From positions 1,464 through 38,203 of the forward strand of contig JBBAWZ010000006.1 of the NCBI GenBank assembly GCA_040396875.1: a stretch of 36,740 nucleotides of DNA, given 5' to 3'. A program made the position numbers and the translations under genes. Under the pieces are notes generated by a model that did not search any database, was not told the DNA's origin, and saw only the letters and a program-made list of their open reading frames with translations. Below, piece after piece: positions 8,708 to 32,103 of the stretch (within the stretch, counting starts at the first letter, position 1; each line of letters begins with the position of its first letter). This DNA comes from Bacilli bacterium (GTDB lineage Bacteria; Bacillota_I; Bacilli_A; RFN20; CAG-826).

Positions 8708-8713
8708 GAATTG

Positions 8714-8739
8714 AAACCTTGGGCAACCAAGGTTTTTTT
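8714..8739 (+). terminator. Intrinsic terminator of the spc-alpha operon
   Basis: aaaccttgg-gcaa-ccaaggttt followed by a T tract. Confidence 0.85.
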
Positions 8740-8742
8740 ATC

Positions 8743-9414
8743 ATGATTAAACATTGGATATTTGACCTTGATGGTACCTTACTTGATACCGCTCCTGATC
8801 TTGCTCGCGCTATTCAGGATACGCTTTTAGCGTTTAAACTTCCCTCCGTTACATTGGAAGAAACCAAAACGTTTATCGGCGGAGGCGCTAGACAATTTGT
8901 CAAAGCGGCGTTAAAAGGTAAAGGTGAAGATCCCGAATTTTTTGAAAGATTCTACACCGCATATATGGTGCGTTATGAAGCGTATCAACTTGCAAATGCG
9001 CGAATCTATCCTGGAATAAAGGACGTCTTAACTTACATTCAAAAAGAAAAGATACAAGCGTATGTTTTTTCCAATAAACCTCATCATTTAACCGTTCAAT
9101 TAATTCAGCACGTCTTTCCAAATATGTTTAAAGGTGTTCATGGTCATATCCCAGGAACGCTACCAAAACCTGATCGAACGATGTTTGATCAATTTGCCAA
9201 AGTTCACAAGATTAATTTAAAGGAAGCGGTGATGATTGGCGATGCACCACCTGACATTTTGTTTGGCAAACAACTGGGTATTCCAATTATCGCTTTGAGT
9301 TATGGTTACACCGATGTGAAGGTTCTAAAAGAGCATCAGCCTGATATCTTGATTCCAACAGCCTTTGAGATTATTCCTTCGATTCAAACATTAGAAAAGA
9401 GACGATTAAAGTAG
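8743..9414 (+). CDS. HAD-superfamily phosphatase (phosphoglycolate phosphatase-like)
   Basis: FDLDGTLLD motif I, SNK motif II, KP and MIGD...D motifs III/IV; ATG 8743 preferred over TTG 8719, which lies inside the terminator. Confidence 0.85.
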   Translation: MIKHWIFDLDGTLLDTAPDLARAIQDTLLAFKLPSVTLEETKTFIGGGARQFVKAALKGKGEDPEFFERFYTAYMVRYEAYQLANARIYPGIKDVLTYIQKEKIQAYVFSNKPHHLTVQLIQHVFPNMFKGVHGHIPGTLPKPDRTMFDQFAKVHKINLKEAVMIGDAPPDILFGKQLGIPIIALSYGYTDVKVLKEHQPDILIPTAFEIIPSIQTLEKRRLK

Positions 9415-9422
9415 GCTCCATC

Positions 9423-9452
9423 AACGATCGGCATCATCACGATCGTTTTTTT
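9423..9452 (+). terminator. Intrinsic terminator after the HAD gene, at the convergent junction with crtM
   Basis: aacgatcg-gcatcatca-cgatcgtt followed by a T tract. Confidence 0.6.
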
Positions 9453-10302
9453 ATTTGGATTTTAATGTATTTAAAATCTTCAATTTTTCTTCTTGGGTGA
9501 CAAATTGTTTTTGGTTCATCACTTGATAATGTTCTCTTCGAATCACGTTTAATATTTCTCGATAGAGAACTAAACTTGCTTGTAATGAAAAACGAACATC
9601 GCTTGGGAAGAATTCAATCCAAGTTTGAGCGTCTTGATAATTGGTTTCTGCTATCTTGGCGATATCTTCCCATACGTTGATAAAGGATGGATTGACGCGT
9701 TGTGATTTTAAATCTTCGATTGAATAACCATATTTTTTCATCATTAAACTTGGTAAATAGATGCGATCACGGCGATAATCTTCACCGATATCCCGAAGGA
9801 TGTTCGTCAATTGAAATGCTCGACCTAATGAGACGGCAAAAGGTTTTAAATCTTTTTTGGAATCTGGCGCTAACATCGGTAATAACATTTTACCCACACT
9901 ACTAGCAACCAAGTCGGCATATTTAAGGAGTTGCTCCATTGATTCAATCCGCACAGGGTGGGCATCCAATTCTTGACCTTCAATCATTTCGTAAAATGGG
10001 GCAAAATAACGTTCATCAGGATAAAAACGATCTCGCGTATCGGCAAGGGCGCGCCAGCGGAATCCTTTTTTTTGATAGCCTTTTACAAAGTCATCTAATT
10101 CGCTTTTATAGCTTTGTAAGCCCTTGATGTCATGTTGCTCATCAATTAAGTCATCGACATGACGGCAAAATGCATAGACAGCGAAGATACCTTGGCGACG
10201 ATGTTTATCTTGAATGTTTGAGAAGGCTCGATAAAAAGTAGCAGAATGTTTTTTAATCACTTGTTCGCAACGCCAATGAGCGTATTGTAATCGAAGTCCC
10301 AT
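9451..10302 (-). CDS. crtM: Dehydrosqualene/phytoene synthase (CrtM/CrtB family)
   Basis: KKHSATF, VYAFCRHVDDLID, VASSVG, LGRAFQLTNILRDIGED..RDRIYLP. Family call is firm; CrtM versus CrtB is inferred from the partner gene. Confidence 0.8.
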   Translation of the reverse strand: MGLRLQYAHWRCEQVIKKHSATFYRAFSNIQDKHRRQGIFAVYAFCRHVDDLIDEQHDIKGLQSYKSELDDFVKGYQKKGFRWRALADTRDRFYPDERYFAPFYEMIEGQELDAHPVRIESMEQLLKYADLVASSVGKMLLPMLAPDSKKDLKPFAVSLGRAFQLTNILRDIGEDYRRDRIYLPSLMMKKYGYSIEDLKSQRVNPSFINVWEDIAKIAETNYQDAQTWIEFFPSDVRFSLQASLVLYREILNVIRREHYQVMNQKQFVTQEEKLKILNTLKSK

Positions 10303-11787
10303 TTATTTAATTTCTTTCATGATCGTATCAACTGCAATTTTTGCTGATTTCATCACAATGGGAATCCCCGCACCTGGATGCGTACTAGTCCCGGCAAAAT
10401 ATAATTGCTCAACTTTTAATGCTTTGACTTGAGGGCGAAAGAAATTACTTTGAAATAGAATCGGTTTAAATCCAAAGGTTGCAGCATATTGTAAATTAAA
10501 TTGGATTTCCCAATCTTTGGGTGTCATGATCTTTTCAACTTCAATCGATTGATCAAATTGTTCAAAACCAGGAATGGTTTTAATTCGTCCAACCATTTTG
10601 TCACGGAAATTCTTTTTCATCGTTTCATCCCAGGAAAATTGGTCATGTTCACGATTAGGTACGGGTACAAGAACATAAATAATTTCTTTCCCCTCAGGGG
10701 CAAGCGTTTTATCAATTTGTGTAGGAGAATAAATATAAAACGATGGATCTTCTGGAAGGGTTGGTTCAAATAGGTTATCAATATTCTTTTTGAAATCCTT
10801 CGCATATCGAATTTGATGGACCGTGGTATTGATTTTTTTATTTAATCCAAAATACATGATAAAACTACTCGATGAATATTCCATTTTTTGCAGTTTCTTA
10901 GGTTGATATTTACCACGATATTGGGATTCGATTAAATTGGAAACCGCATAGGGGAAATCTGCATTGACAAGCACGGCATCACTTGGAATAAATGCGTTAT
11001 TGACGATAATACCTTTTGCACGACCCGATTCAATTTTGATTGACGTTACATTTGCATTGGTGACAACTTTACCACCAAGTTCTTCAAAACGTTTCTGCAT
11101 GGCCTTCGCCATCGCATACATGCCACCCTTGATATACCAAATACCATAAAGCAATTCAATCATTGGAATAATCGTGTAAATGGAAGGACCGACAAAAGGA
11201 GATACCCCGATATAAAGCGTTTGAAAGGATAACGCTTGGCGAAGTTTTTCATTTTTAACAAACTTAGCAATGGATTGATATGCAGAGTTAAAAGTTCTTA
11301 GTTTGAAAGTGTTGAGAATATTTTGCCAGTTAAAAATATCTTTGCTCGACAAAAAAGACCGATCAATAAATCCTTTTCTAGCGATGTTATATCGAGCGTA
11401 AATATCGGCAAGATACGCTAAATAACCTTGGGTATCTTCCAAAGAAATTTTTTCTAATGCAGGAATAAGTTTGGTAAGGTTACTTGAAACCGTAAAAGAA
11501 GTTCCATCTTGATAGTGCAGTTGATATAAAGGATCTAAGAGCTGCATTGAAATATAATCATCGGGATTCGCACCGCTAAACTCAAATACTTCTCGGTATA
11601 TTTCTGGCATCATCACAATCGTAGGGCCTACATCAAATTGAAAACCTTTTTCTTTGAAGGAATACATTCTGCCACCCACTTGTGGATTTTTCTCATAAAT
11701 GGTGACTTGATAACCTTTGGTTTGTAAACGGATGGCACTCGCTAATCCAGCGGTACCTGCTCCAATGATCGTGATACTTTTTTTCAT
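10303..11787 (-). CDS. crtN: Diapophytoene/phytoene desaturase (CrtN-like, CrtI family)
   Basis: GAGTAG FAD motif, FDVGPTIVMMP, FQTLYIG, GPSIYTIIPMIE, IKGGMY, YVLVPVP, HPGAGIP; the GPTIVMMP, FQTLYIG and IIPMIE segments resemble staphylococcal/lactobacillal CrtN as I recall them. Confidence 0.82.
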   Translation of the reverse strand: MKKSITIIGAGTAGLASAIRLQTKGYQVTIYEKNPQVGGRMYSFKEKGFQFDVGPTIVMMPEIYREVFEFSGANPDDYISMQLLDPLYQLHYQDGTSFTVSSNLTKLIPALEKISLEDTQGYLAYLADIYARYNIARKGFIDRSFLSSKDIFNWQNILNTFKLRTFNSAYQSIAKFVKNEKLRQALSFQTLYIGVSPFVGPSIYTIIPMIELLYGIWYIKGGMYAMAKAMQKRFEELGGKVVTNANVTSIKIESGRAKGIIVNNAFIPSDAVLVNADFPYAVSNLIESQYRGKYQPKKLQKMEYSSSSFIMYFGLNKKINTTVHQIRYAKDFKKNIDNLFEPTLPEDPSFYIYSPTQIDKTLAPEGKEIIYVLVPVPNREHDQFSWDETMKKNFRDKMVGRIKTIPGFEQFDQSIEVEKIMTPKDWEIQFNLQYAATFGFKPILFQSNFFRPQVKALKVEQLYFAGTSTHPGAGIPIVMKSAKIAVDTIMKEIK

Positions 11788-11793
11788 AATTTA

Positions 11794-11799
11794 AGTCTA
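11794..11799 (-). promoter_or_regulatory. Candidate -10 box for crtN (TAGACT, 6 nt before ATG)
   Basis: Minus strand reads TAGACT-taaatt-ATG with no SD; an alternative extended -10 (TGaTAAGAT) lies slightly further upstream. Confidence 0.45.
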
Positions 11800-11838
11800 T
11801 TCAATCTTATCATAAATGACCTTAAATGTATGGTTTTA

Positions 11839-11847
11839 TGCTATGAT
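11839..11847 (+). promoter_or_regulatory. Extended -10 promoter for the photolyase (probably leaderless)
   Basis: TGcTATGAT-ttccct-ATG(11854); no SD. Confidence 0.65.
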
Positions 11848-11853
11848 TTCCCT

Positions 11854-13173
11854 ATGGATACGCTCAATTCAAGAGGTCAATTACTGAATACAATACCCAT
11901 CCAAAAGGGCCCTGTTGTCTATTGGATGAATCGTGAGATGAGATTAGAAGATAACTGGGCACTCATTTACGCTCAAACCAAAGCGGTTGAGCTTAATCAA
12001 CCTTGTATCGTTATTTTTAGTTTATTTGACCATTTTGAAAGTGCGAAGAACACAAAAGATGATCCCATGTTCACAAGAATGAAAATGGGTTTGAAGCTTG
12101 TGATTCAACAAGCCAAAGAAAAAGCTTTGCCTTTTTATGTCCTTCATGGACCAACAGTTAAAACCATACAACAATTTTTAAACCATATTCAAGCTGGATT
12201 GTTGGTGACAGATTTTTCACCTCTAAAAGAAATGAGAGCATTAAGAGAATCTCTATCAAAATCGGTTAAGATTGCCATGATAGAAGTTGACTCTCATAAC
12301 ATTATTCCGGTTCATGTGGCGAGTCAAAAGCAGGAATGGGGCGCCTATACACTTCGTCCTAAGATTCATAAATTATTACCGACTTATTTGCATGCGTTTC
12401 CAACGTGGATTAAAACCCCACCATTCGACTATAAAGGCCCGCATGATGAAACGTTTTTAAATGGTATTAAAGAAGAAATCAATCCAACATTAGCGCTTCG
12501 TCAATTTATAACGCTGCGTTTAAACCAATATGAAAACCGCAATGATCCTAATTTAGAAGCAACCAGCAGATTATCTCCATATTTTCATTTTGGGCATTTG
12601 AGTTCCCAAAGCGTTGCATTAGCCGTAAAAGCCACTGGTGGGCAGCATGAATCATTCTTAGAAGAAATGATTGTGCGAAAAGAACTTGCAGATAATTATT
12701 GTTTTTATAATCGTGAATATGATTCATTTAAGGGATTTCCTGATTGGGCTAAGAAAACATTAGATCTACACCGTAAAGATCGTCGAGAATATATGTATTC
12801 AATTGACCAATTCGCTAAAGCACAAACGCATGATGATGCATGGAACGCTGCACAAATGCAAATGGTTAAAACCGGTTATATGCATGGATACATGAGAATG
12901 TATTGGGCTAAAAAAATTCTTGAATGGACTGCCTCACCTGAAGAAGCCCTTACGATTGCAAACCAATTAAATGATCAATATGAATTAGATGGTCGTGATC
13001 CCAATGGTTATACCGGGACGGCTTGGGCTATTGGAGGCGTTCATGATAGACCTTGGCAAGAAAGACCCATTTTTGGGATGATTCGCTATATGAATGCTGC
13101 AGGGCTTAAACGTAAGTTTGATATCGGTGCATATATTCAACGTTGGTTAAATCCATCAATCATCGTAAAATAA
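11854..13173 (+). CDS. phr: Class II CPD DNA photolyase
   Basis: VVYWMNRE.R..DNWAL, SRLSPYFHFG, ELADNYC.YN, GYMHGYMRMYWAKKILEW, DGRDPNG, GGVHDRPW.ER.IFG.IRYM are class II signatures; alternative start at 11830. Confidence 0.93.
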   Translation: MDTLNSRGQLLNTIPIQKGPVVYWMNREMRLEDNWALIYAQTKAVELNQPCIVIFSLFDHFESAKNTKDDPMFTRMKMGLKLVIQQAKEKALPFYVLHGPTVKTIQQFLNHIQAGLLVTDFSPLKEMRALRESLSKSVKIAMIEVDSHNIIPVHVASQKQEWGAYTLRPKIHKLLPTYLHAFPTWIKTPPFDYKGPHDETFLNGIKEEINPTLALRQFITLRLNQYENRNDPNLEATSRLSPYFHFGHLSSQSVALAVKATGGQHESFLEEMIVRKELADNYCFYNREYDSFKGFPDWAKKTLDLHRKDRREYMYSIDQFAKAQTHDDAWNAAQMQMVKTGYMHGYMRMYWAKKILEWTASPEEALTIANQLNDQYELDGRDPNGYTGTAWAIGGVHDRPWQERPIFGMIRYMNAAGLKRKFDIGAYIQRWLNPSIIVK

Positions 13174-30588: not shown

Positions 30589-32103
30589 ATGCTCAAAAGA
30601 ATCTTAACGTTTGTTTATTTGCCCACGCTCAGTTTATTTGCAATAATCTCCACCATGCAAACAACCTTTTTGACGGGTCCTACTTATCGCGATGTGAGAA
30701 TTCGCGAAGGTTATACAACGGTGATGCCGACGACGGGTGATGTCAATATGCTTGTGATTCCGATTAATTTTTCTGATGCCAGTTGTCAGTTGATTCTTGA
30801 AGGTTGTCAGCAAACCAAAATCAATATTGAACAAGCCTTTTTTGGTGATGCTGAAACAATGCGATGGCATTCTGTTTCCTCTTATTATCAAGCTTCGAGT
30901 TATGGGCAATTAAATATCGATGGCATGGTGACGGATTGGTATACCCCATCGATCACAGCAGTTGCCTTGTCTGAAAATCGTGGGTTATTGGGTAGCCAAG
31001 TGATACAACCTGCGATTGAACAATTTAAATCACAATTTCCAAATGATGTGGTTTCTTATGACCAAGACCGAGATGGTTTTCTGGATGCTGTTTATTTTAT
31101 TTATTCATTACCATTTGATCCTGAAGATGAAATTTATGGAGAGGATAAGGATGTTTTTTGGGCGTTTGTCGCCTATCAGGGTGGTCAGGCTAATGTCACC
31201 AATCCTAACTTATTTCATTATGGTTGGAGTAGTTATCAATTTATGTATGAAGATGGAACTTATCAACGGAGTGATAATGGAAAAGTGATATGGGATGATG
31301 AAAACGAACCGATCTTTCATGTTCATCTCGATGCATTTGACCAACGGCAAGTTGATGCGCATGTGTTCATTCACGAGGTTGGTCATTTACTGGGATTACA
31401 AGATTATTATAGTTACGATCGTGAAGCAGGCGATTGGGGACCAGCTGGTGCTTTGGACATGATGGACTTTAATATTGGTGATCATAATGGTTTTTCAAAA
31501 ATGGCCTTAGGCTGGGTTGAACCTTATGTTGCGAATACTCAATTTCAATCGTTAGTGTTACCGGCATTATCACAATCTGCAAAGGTGTTGATTTTACCAA
31601 AATTGAATTTGACGACGATGATGGATGAATATATTTTAGTTGAGTTTTATCAACCCACGGGTTTGAATCAAAAAGATAGTCAAGAATCCTATGCGGGTCG
31701 CTATCCAAGAATGTTTACCCAAGCAGGAGTTAAGATTTATCATATTGATGCTAGAATTGCTCAACTGAGTGTGACGTCTCAAGGTCTTCAGTTAGATGGT
31801 TTTGTGACAGCGATGCAGCCCACTGGTTATCGCTATCAAATCGCCCATAATAATACAGTATCTAGAAACGCTATTGGTACGAATCCAAATCATAAATTGA
31901 TTCACTTGTTAGAAGCATCTGGACTGAATACCTTCCGCCATGGTGGATTTGCCACCAATGCCAGCTTATTTCAAAATGGCATGGTATTTAACGCAGATTC
32001 GAATCCCTTTTTGATGCATGATGGCACGCGATTACCCTGGGAGTTAACGATTGGTCAGATGGGCCAATCTGGTGTGCAATTAAACTGGCGATTTGTGAAT
32101 TAA
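30589..32103 (+). CDS. Secreted or membrane-anchored metzincin metallopeptidase, M6 (immune inhibitor A)-like
   Basis: N-terminal hydrophobic signal, LVIPINFSD, SV..YY..SSYG, D.D.DG..D, HEVGHLLGLQD (31372-31404), Met-turn LDMMD, K..LGW. Confidence 0.85.
   Translation: MLKRILTFVYLPTLSLFAIISTMQTTFLTGPTYRDVRIREGYTTVMPTTGDVNMLVIPINFSDASCQLILEGCQQTKINIEQAFFGDAETMRWHSVSSYYQASSYGQLNIDGMVTDWYTPSITAVALSENRGLLGSQVIQPAIEQFKSQFPNDVVSYDQDRDGFLDAVYFIYSLPFDPEDEIYGEDKDVFWAFVAYQGGQANVTNPNLFHYGWSSYQFMYEDGTYQRSDNGKVIWDDENEPIFHVHLDAFDQRQVDAHVFIHEVGHLLGLQDYYSYDREAGDWGPAGALDMMDFNIGDHNGFSKMALGWVEPYVANTQFQSLVLPALSQSAKVLILPKLNLTTMMDEYILVEFYQPTGLNQKDSQESYAGRYPRMFTQAGVKIYHIDARIAQLSVTSQGLQLDGFVTAMQPTGYRYQIAHNNTVSRNAIGTNPNHKLIHLLEASGLNTFRHGGFATNASLFQNGMVFNADSNPFLMHDGTRLPWELTIGQMGQSGVQLNWRFVN

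Follow-up and report, generated by a model that had tools for sequence, protein, structure and literature searches.

A predicted C30 carotenoid gene pair, probably inserted in front of an older class II photolyase gene, in small-genome surface-water Bacilli

Carotenoid synthesis and photolyase genes are under joint light control in Thermus, through LitR/LdrP (PMC5401885), and in Mycobacterium kansasii (PMC9861118); the C30 carotenoid genes crtMN of Lactobacillaceae bring a survival benefit under ultraviolet (UV) light (PMC11615344), and Acholeplasma laidlawii makes its carotenoids via the mevalonate route (PMC3942410). Here we analyse a 36,740-nucleotide stretch of DNA, hereafter the window, from a Bacilli bacterium (GTDB lineage Bacillota_I; Bacilli_A; RFN20; CAG-826; assembly GCA_040396875.1, contig JBBAWZ010000006.1, positions 1,464 to 38,203), in which a predicted crtN-crtM pair on the minus strand stands head to head with a gene for a class II cyclobutane pyrimidine dimer (CPD) photolyase, phr, on the plus strand. 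We find a locus that is real and conserved throughout the window's genus, a group of surface-water Bacilli with genomes of about 1 Mb, whose parts are ordinary and whose crt-plus-photolyase neighbourhood was already known. On balance, we think it probable that crtNM, likely of the C30 type, was inserted before an older phr, and that each side has its own housekeeping-type promoter with no shared light switch.

The source genome (G000; G and C numbers denote genomes and contigs), 86% complete, amounts to 942,941 bases on 16 contigs. The three genes are intact open reading frames, and their families and head-to-head arrangement, 66 bp apart, are those that a first-pass annotation of the window had described:

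9451..10302, minus strand: crtM, predicted 4,4'-diapophytoene (C30) synthase, 283 amino acids (PF00494; PDB 8IS6; F22, F26, an aromatic residue at W38 and both Asp motifs)
10303..11787, minus strand: crtN, predicted 4,4'-diapophytoene desaturase, 494 amino acids (TIGR02734; staphylococcal CrtN clade, 95/99)
11854..13173, plus strand: phr, class II CPD photolyase (TIGR00591, 509 bits; 2XRY; equivalents of Y345/W360/W381/W388)

The crtN stop adjoins the crtM start (10303/10302), again as first annotated, and the gap between crtN and phr measures 66 bp with the ATG at 11854, a start conserved in relatives, or 42 bp with the ATG at 11830. Purifying selection acts on all three, with dN/dS values of 0.03-0.09 in comparisons with three genus mates. 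The names crtN and crtM also stand: the crtM product matches PF00494 (E 3.5e-62) and has CrtM 8IS6 as its best PDB match (E 1.8e-63), while the crtN product reaches 445.8 bits on TIGR02734 (cut-off 238.1), is 44% identical to staphylococcal CrtN versus 33% to Pantoea CrtI, and in an 18-row tree joins staphylococcal CrtN (95/99), separate from CrtP and Pantoea CrtI.

The linkage of these genes holds in relatives. Of 17 genus mates, 15 show divergent crtN/phr on a single contig; in the remaining two (G001 and G009) the locus is broken by contig ends, and none contradicts the arrangement. In a first set of genomes phr was present in 17/17 genus mates and 0/23 other relatives, and among 200 genomes of the family crtN occurs in 10/10 members of the genus and in 0/190 outside it. 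The sister genus (g29) is included in the latter figure with 0/5 genomes, and an RpoC tree (30 rows, quick method, leaving out the fetched locus of G163) places it beside the window's genus with 100% SH-aLRT. Four of its five genomes do carry an orthologous phr, which clusters with that of the window (SH-aLRT 88). To compare the two states of the site, two further features are needed:

8743..9414, plus strand: haloacid dehalogenase (HAD) phosphatase, phosphoglycolate-phosphatase-like (PF13419, E 2.7e-27), in the sister genus directly 5' of phr and coupled to it
8713..8736, plus strand: terminator-like hairpin 3' of rplQ (10-bp stem and T run) closing the ribosomal-protein/rpoA run, kept in the genus mates shown

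All four sister-genus loci read rplQ-terminator-HAD-phr-cysS, with no crt genes and with the HAD stop and the phr start overlapping or standing 2 nt apart, and a -10-like box lies 6-7 nt 5' of HAD. A further family genome, G020, reads rplQ-HAD-cysS with no phr. Since the sister genus holds a same-site photolyase coupled to HAD and without crt, crtNM would be the later arrival, and the simplest account is likely one of two steps, in which phr came in behind HAD in the common ancestor and crtN-crtM was then inserted backwards between them. Arrival of the three genes as one block was also considered; it was rejected on the strength of the sister-genus locus, with its phr and no crt, and of the nearest outside crtN genes (families f19 and f25, 54-60% identity), which accompany photolyases only 33-38% identical to that of the window.

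The C30 part of this reading draws on the enzymes themselves. CrtM carries both Asp-rich motifs (DDLIDE and RDIGED), and its F27 and F40 occupy the sites of F26 and W38 in the S. aureus enzyme, with F and F/Y, respectively, in 7/7 aligned genus mates (the F233 site lies where the alignment is not clean). These two sites restrict the product to C30, and their mutation yields longer backbones (PMC4510654). The sole PF00348 gene of G000 passes the cut-off for farnesyl diphosphate (FPP) synthases (284.8 versus 275); five positions ahead of its first DDxxD stands Tyr, where Pantoea CrtE has Ala. CrtN/CrtP are markers of C30 pathways (PMC9907078). Homologues of crtP, crtQ and crtO lie together at C2:111825-114721, on another contig than crtNM: CrtP (C2:111825) groups with staphylococcal CrtP at 100/99, and adjoining it are CrtO (PF18927, E 2.8e-31) and a CrtQ-like GT2 protein 33% identical to staphylococcal CrtQ. 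No match to CrtY or CrtZ was found in G000. From the size-limiting CrtM aromatics, the FPP-type synthase, crtP/crtQ/crtO and the lack of a CrtY/CrtZ match, a C30 backbone is likely and well supported, in agreement with the type first annotated. CrtM and CrtN, which were said to suffice for 4,4'-diaponeurosporene, are probably not the whole pathway, since crtP, crtQ and crtO are present; a staphyloxanthin-like glycosylated, acylated C30 pigment is the likelier end product. In the proposed route, isopentenyl diphosphate (IPP) from the mevalonate pathway, whose lower genes are present in G000, would be converted to FPP via IspA; CrtM would join two FPP into 4,4'-diapophytoene, which CrtN then desaturates; and CrtP, CrtQ and CrtO would likely oxidise, glycosylate and acylate the product (for the roles of CrtP and AldH/CrtNc in the pathway see PMC12821545 and PMC10745290). 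The resulting membrane pigment would quench singlet oxygen and radicals. A third CrtI-family gene (C1:49025-50572), which most genus mates retain, falls beside a Microvirga CrtN-like enzyme in the tree and is a candidate for the missing aldehyde oxidation or for a second desaturase; its apparent disruption by stops in some mates proved to be a matter of alignment overhangs, open frames of at least 486 codons being present in 12/13 loci.

On the other side of the gap, the phr product scores 509 bits on TIGR00591, below the cut-off of 550, against 36.8 and 34.1 bits on class I models and at most 37 on any class I, DASH or cryptochrome model, and class II structures such as 2XRY and 8OET match at E about 1e-120 versus 5e-7 for class I. 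Equivalents of the class II electron-transfer residues Y345/W360/W381/W388 (PMC5885780) are present in 21/21 loci read, and R378, N403 and D409 are also retained. The enzyme likely repairs cyclobutane dimers using FADH-, which would be recharged via the W381-W360-W388(-Y345) chain. Class II photolyases had been called rare in Bacilli, a view that did not survive a wider count: a TIGR00591 match at E<=1e-60 was obtained in 78 of the 400 genomes sampled (class II alone being counted); all 78 score below 550, and in about 22 the match covers just the C-terminal half. Among the matches listed the genomes are all <=2.2 Mb.

We then turned to the gap and the start of the gene that follows phr, where three promoter-like boxes can be recognized:

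11809..11814, minus strand: -10-like hexamer TATGAT, predicted crtNM promoter (column identity 0.75-1.0 in 16 genomes)
11839..11847, plus strand: extended -10 element TGcTATGAT, predicted leaderless housekeeping phr promoter, 6 nt before the ATG
13166..13171, plus strand: TAAAAT, predicted separate cysS promoter within the 3' end of phr, 6 nt before the cysS ATG

The spacer is otherwise poorly conserved (mean column identity 0.70 over 16 genomes), conservation being limited to the two -10 boxes and a central AA. A TGnTAnnnT motif lies 5-8 nt 5' of the phr ATG in 16/16 genomes; the minus-strand box was judged by its column identities, the corresponding pattern having sometimes caught the crtN start codon. 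Across G000, TAnnnT is most frequent at exactly 6 nt 5' of the start codon (69 of 813 genes versus 16-38 at other gaps), and TGnTATAAT/TGnTATGAT is 8- to 26-fold denser between genes than within them, so that the phr box is likely of the genome's common leaderless housekeeping type. Many G000 genes seem to be leaderless, beside a normal Shine-Dalgarno peak. A generic sigma-70 scan returned 21 sites versus 29.2 in shuffled sequence and missed both intergenic boxes. Each side of the gap is likely to be read from its own housekeeping-type promoter. At the far end of phr, a TAnnnT box stands 6-7 nt before the cysS start in the genus-mate junctions shown, and the idea that phr heads an essential cysS operon and is constitutive for that reason was dropped, cysS having a conserved -10-like box of its own.

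Several points weigh against an insertion before an older phr with separately driven sides. A loss of crt in the sister genus and a gain in the window's genus are inseparable from the tree alone, although loss needs more events. The separate cysS box removes the need for phr to be constitutive. Possible regulators exist elsewhere in the genome: three LacI-family genes in G000, and a MarR-family gene on another of its contigs, found in 2/3 genomes of the genus searched; MarR-type light control without a known sensor occurs in Corynebacterium, where phrB is not light-induced (PMC6739363). The pathway has gaps as well. Two aldehyde dehydrogenase queries gave no tblastn match at E<1e-4 in the 86%-complete G000, and no HMG-CoA reductase passes the cut-off there, the latter likely an assembly gap (13/17 genus mates have one over the cut-off, the sister genus 0/4). 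Finally, crt and photolyase genes have met elsewhere. Among 77 other genomes with a class II photolyase, 25 hold a CrtM/B gene, which lies within about 2 kb in two, about 10 kb away in two (G156 and G237, with crtNM), far off on the same contig in three and on a separate contig in 18. G209 and G312 read co-directionally crtN-crtM-x-DUF92-(x)-phr and, like G156 and G237, belong to another Bacilli family (f19); the photolyases of G209 and G312 fall on the opposite side of a 100% split from that of the window, and the pairing thus arose at least twice. Such repetition speaks for some advantage of the neighbourhood and against novelty in kind, and suggests selection for it, favouring co-expression. 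The f19 crtNM genes are accompanied by a 222-residue membrane protein without a Pfam match and a DUF92 protein (loci L199:5403-6870, L200:5574-7037 and L201), placed between crtM and phr in two genomes.

These meetings in f19 also bear on the reading behind the first-pass annotation, that of a divergon whose 66-bp gap binds a single regulator, with pigment synthesis and dimer repair turned on jointly. The layout persists where protein identity is down to 58-60%, Thermus and M. kansasii offer precedents for joint control of crt and phr by light, and the predicted promoters overlap; their -10 boxes, at a distance of 27 bp, could both be covered by one protein. Near relatives even carry a mid-gap near-palindrome, ACTTTAAAAGT. 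This central palindrome is lost in G013, G008, G016 and G004, however, and phr was probably at the site before crtNM. Nor was a light sensor found: the B12-binding domain PF02310 was found in 0/5 genomes (control positive in 13/14), no LOV, photoactive yellow protein (PYP) or phytochrome signature was found by a pattern search prone to false negatives (its LacI pattern missed three genes), and there is one BLUF-pattern match, in a 574-codon frame. No regulator gene lies among the window neighbours of the locus, and crtP/Q/O are on another contig. The tight spacing, which had been taken as special, is not a mark of a special unit either: among the genome's 97 divergent pairs, 22 are separated by <=70 bp (median 108, from rough gene calls). 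We therefore hold a common switch to be unlikely, and the proposal of an undescribed co-regulated light-defence unit is unsupported, given a phr that appears older at the site, no operator or sensor found, the remaining carotenoid genes and other light genes elsewhere and a coupling known before.

Other light genes lie elsewhere in the genome. A rhodopsin gene (C3:59492-60289; locus L033:1465-2262), whose product is nearest to sodium pumps such as KR2 (E about 1e-58), encodes the N-D-Q motif of sodium-pumping rhodopsins (PMC11006869), as N112-D116-Q123 with the retinal-binding Lys, in G000 and in 12 of the 13 loci from genus mates (the pattern did not read that of G004). This NDQ rhodopsin occurs in 13/17 genus mates, 0/23 other relatives, 0/4 sister-genus genomes and 4/400 other Bacilli, and its named near homologues come from Spirochaeta, Acholeplasmataceae and Bacillota bins. 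The gene has a strong ribosome-binding site, and a cre-like palindrome, TGAAAGCGCTACCA, overlaps the -35 predicted for it in each of the 10 relatives shown. Palindromes of this type also stand 5' of several lipoprotein genes. The c subunit of the F-type ATP synthase (C1:38792-38983; locus L080:1486-1779; best PDB match 4BEM) has E32, E65, T66, T67 and Y70, which compare with the Na+ c-ring ligands Gln/Glu32, Glu65, Ser/Thr66, polar 67 and Tyr70 (PMC2359735); GPGIGEG...ETTGIY is present in 4/5 c-subunit loci read, the fifth being unmatched by the pattern. G010 is equipped with an operon for a V/A-type ATPase as well (L085). G000 also has gene sets for Rnf and an Nqr-like complex, the latter as an nqrBCDEF-like run without nqrA (C3:27786-31715; L222), and a similar run lies near the NDQ rhodopsin of G210 (L202).

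There are two further light genes. Heliorhodopsin is found in the window's genus and in the sister genus (5/5); in G000 (C2:44429-46217; L214) a tocopherol-cyclase-like gene follows it, and the same pair is divergent from crtN in G209 (L199). An FeS-type (6-4) photolyase is present in 15/18 genomes of the genus and 0/10 others; its gene (C3 ~73700-77200; L223, L230) is divergent from ribD-ribBA across a 37-bp gap with back-to-back -10 boxes, much as crtN and phr are arranged. The lumazine antenna of FeS-type (6-4) photolyases derives from the riboflavin pathway. In G000 the region is followed by rnfCDGEA.

How the rhodopsins obtain retinal leads to another explanation of crtNM. No blh or RPE65-type oxygenase gene was found in the five genomes searched (for blh without a positive control), and retinal is on that account likely scavenged, though its synthesis without known genes has been reported in Aurantimicrobium (PMC7734400). 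Alternatively, the product of crtNM could be a C40 carotenoid from which, along some uncharacterised route, retinal for the two rhodopsins is formed; that report, the two rhodopsins without an oxygenase and the third CrtI-family gene, with no assigned role, would all fit this. We consider this very improbable in view of the C30-type CrtM residues, the FPP-type synthase, the presence of crtP/Q/O and the lack of a lycopene cyclase match, and the blh search on which it leans had no positive control. C40 neurosporene has reportedly been described from Acholeplasma laidlawii, to whose relatives the nearest crtN may belong; a literature search did not find that report. The C30 pigment might conceivably also act as an antenna on the NDQ rhodopsin, which has Gly at the fenestration position of helix E. 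A sodium-pump rhodopsin reportedly binds salinixanthin (PMC10026069); we know of no acyclic C30 antenna.

Together, these genes allow a wider suggestion, which we offer tentatively, as a possibility rather than the expected outcome: that the genus is defined by a light kit assembled stepwise in a probably wall-less freshwater photoheterotroph with an all-sodium circuit, scavenged retinal and a sugar-sensing LacI/CcpA-type switch on the pump. The NDQ pump and an Na+-type F1Fo, alongside Rnf and the Nqr-like complex, would yield light-driven ATP, while the C30 pigment and two photolyases would allow life at the sunlit surface. Photolyase and heliorhodopsin, common to the sister genus, would have come first, followed by crt, mevalonate supply, the (6-4)-type photolyase and the sodium pump. 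A literature search covering few subscription journals found nothing relevant on this lineage's rhodopsin, and supplementary host tables could already list these genomes.

A probably wall-less cell invites yet another view of the pigment, as mainly a membrane stiffener or general antioxidant, its place beside phr being a neutral insertion at a permissive junction. MraY/MurG signatures were not found by a pattern search (a weak indication, the same script having missed LacI proteins), mraY/murG are missing from most RFN20 genomes (PMC7301438), and among antioxidant enzymes a superoxide dismutase and two glutathione peroxidases are encoded, no catalase signature being found. Yet crt occurs only in the genus in which the NDQ rhodopsin and the (6-4)-type photolyase were likewise acquired, 190 other genomes of the family do without it, and C30 producers are more UV-resistant in Lactiplantibacillus (PMC11615344). 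A chiefly mechanical or antioxidant role with chance placement seems to us quite unlikely.

The surroundings of the locus are otherwise those of a ribosomal region, with rpoA-rplQ-HAD on one side and cysS-mgtC-rlmB-sigma-secE-nusG-trkAH-rplK on the other. Between the convergent ends of HAD and crtM (9423-9450) lies a perfect 8-bp inverted repeat with a 9-nt loop and a T run, likely a terminator, whose sequence differs among relatives. The rplQ hairpin (8713-8743) abuts the HAD start in the window's genus, which lacks the -10 box seen 5' of HAD in the sister genus, and HAD may thus depend on read-through. A protein with an M6-family metalloprotease domain (TIGR03296, 85 bits, below the cut-off) is encoded at 30589-32103, between rpoC and rpsL. 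A record titled Staphylococcus epidermidis (L029) contains the locus at 73-80% identity in the gene order of the genus; its label is probably wrong.

The sunlit habitat first proposed agrees with the records: close relatives have river or lake titles, same-sample or same-study runs are labelled lake water or estuary, and the rhodopsins and second photolyase point the same way. The locus marks a clear step in the move of a small-genome Bacilli lineage into sunlit lakes and rivers, of which the sister genus appears to keep the pre-insertion state. An NDQ pump beside an ATP synthase with a Na+ signature would open to direct testing both phototrophy based on sodium when outside Na+ is low and the retinal source in C30-only bacteria. 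Such possible phototrophy in a streamlined freshwater genus is a stronger lead than the divergent locus.

Compared with described systems, the rhodopsin resembles KR2/IaNaR in its N-D-Q motif, its helix G lysine and a Leu at the KR2 L74 position (subgroup 1; PMC11006869); unlike them, it resides in a freshwater Bacilli host of about 1 Mb with C30 carotenoid genes only, where no retinal-making gene was found. The photolyase belongs to the same family as those of Methanosarcina mazei (2XRY) and Trichococcus flocculiformis, with the electron-transfer residues retained. The Trichococcus enzyme sits in a heliorhodopsin operon and is the Bacilli precedent for a class II photolyase among light genes (PMC9769723), whereas here heliorhodopsin and photolyase are on different contigs. 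As in the Thermus thermophilus LitR/LdrP system, the M. kansasii CRT/phrB genes and the actinobacterial crtR clusters with phr, carotenoid and photolyase would serve the same light stress, with a tie in position or control; those regulons involve C40/C50 pigments and a LitR/CarH or MarR regulator, while the present locus has a predicted C30 pigment and a class II enzyme, with neither an adjacent regulator nor a B12-binding domain found. The locus also resembles the Lactobacillaceae crtNM/crtMN operons and the staphyloxanthin crtOPQMN genes, which share the CrtM+CrtN pair, the CrtP/CrtQ/CrtO homologues and the mevalonate supply, and, for Lactobacillaceae, the tie to UV-exposed habitats (PMC11615344). 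Unlike in these systems, the genes are split here over three contigs, with no AldH found, an extra Microvirga-type CrtN-like gene, and a photolyase facing crtNM.

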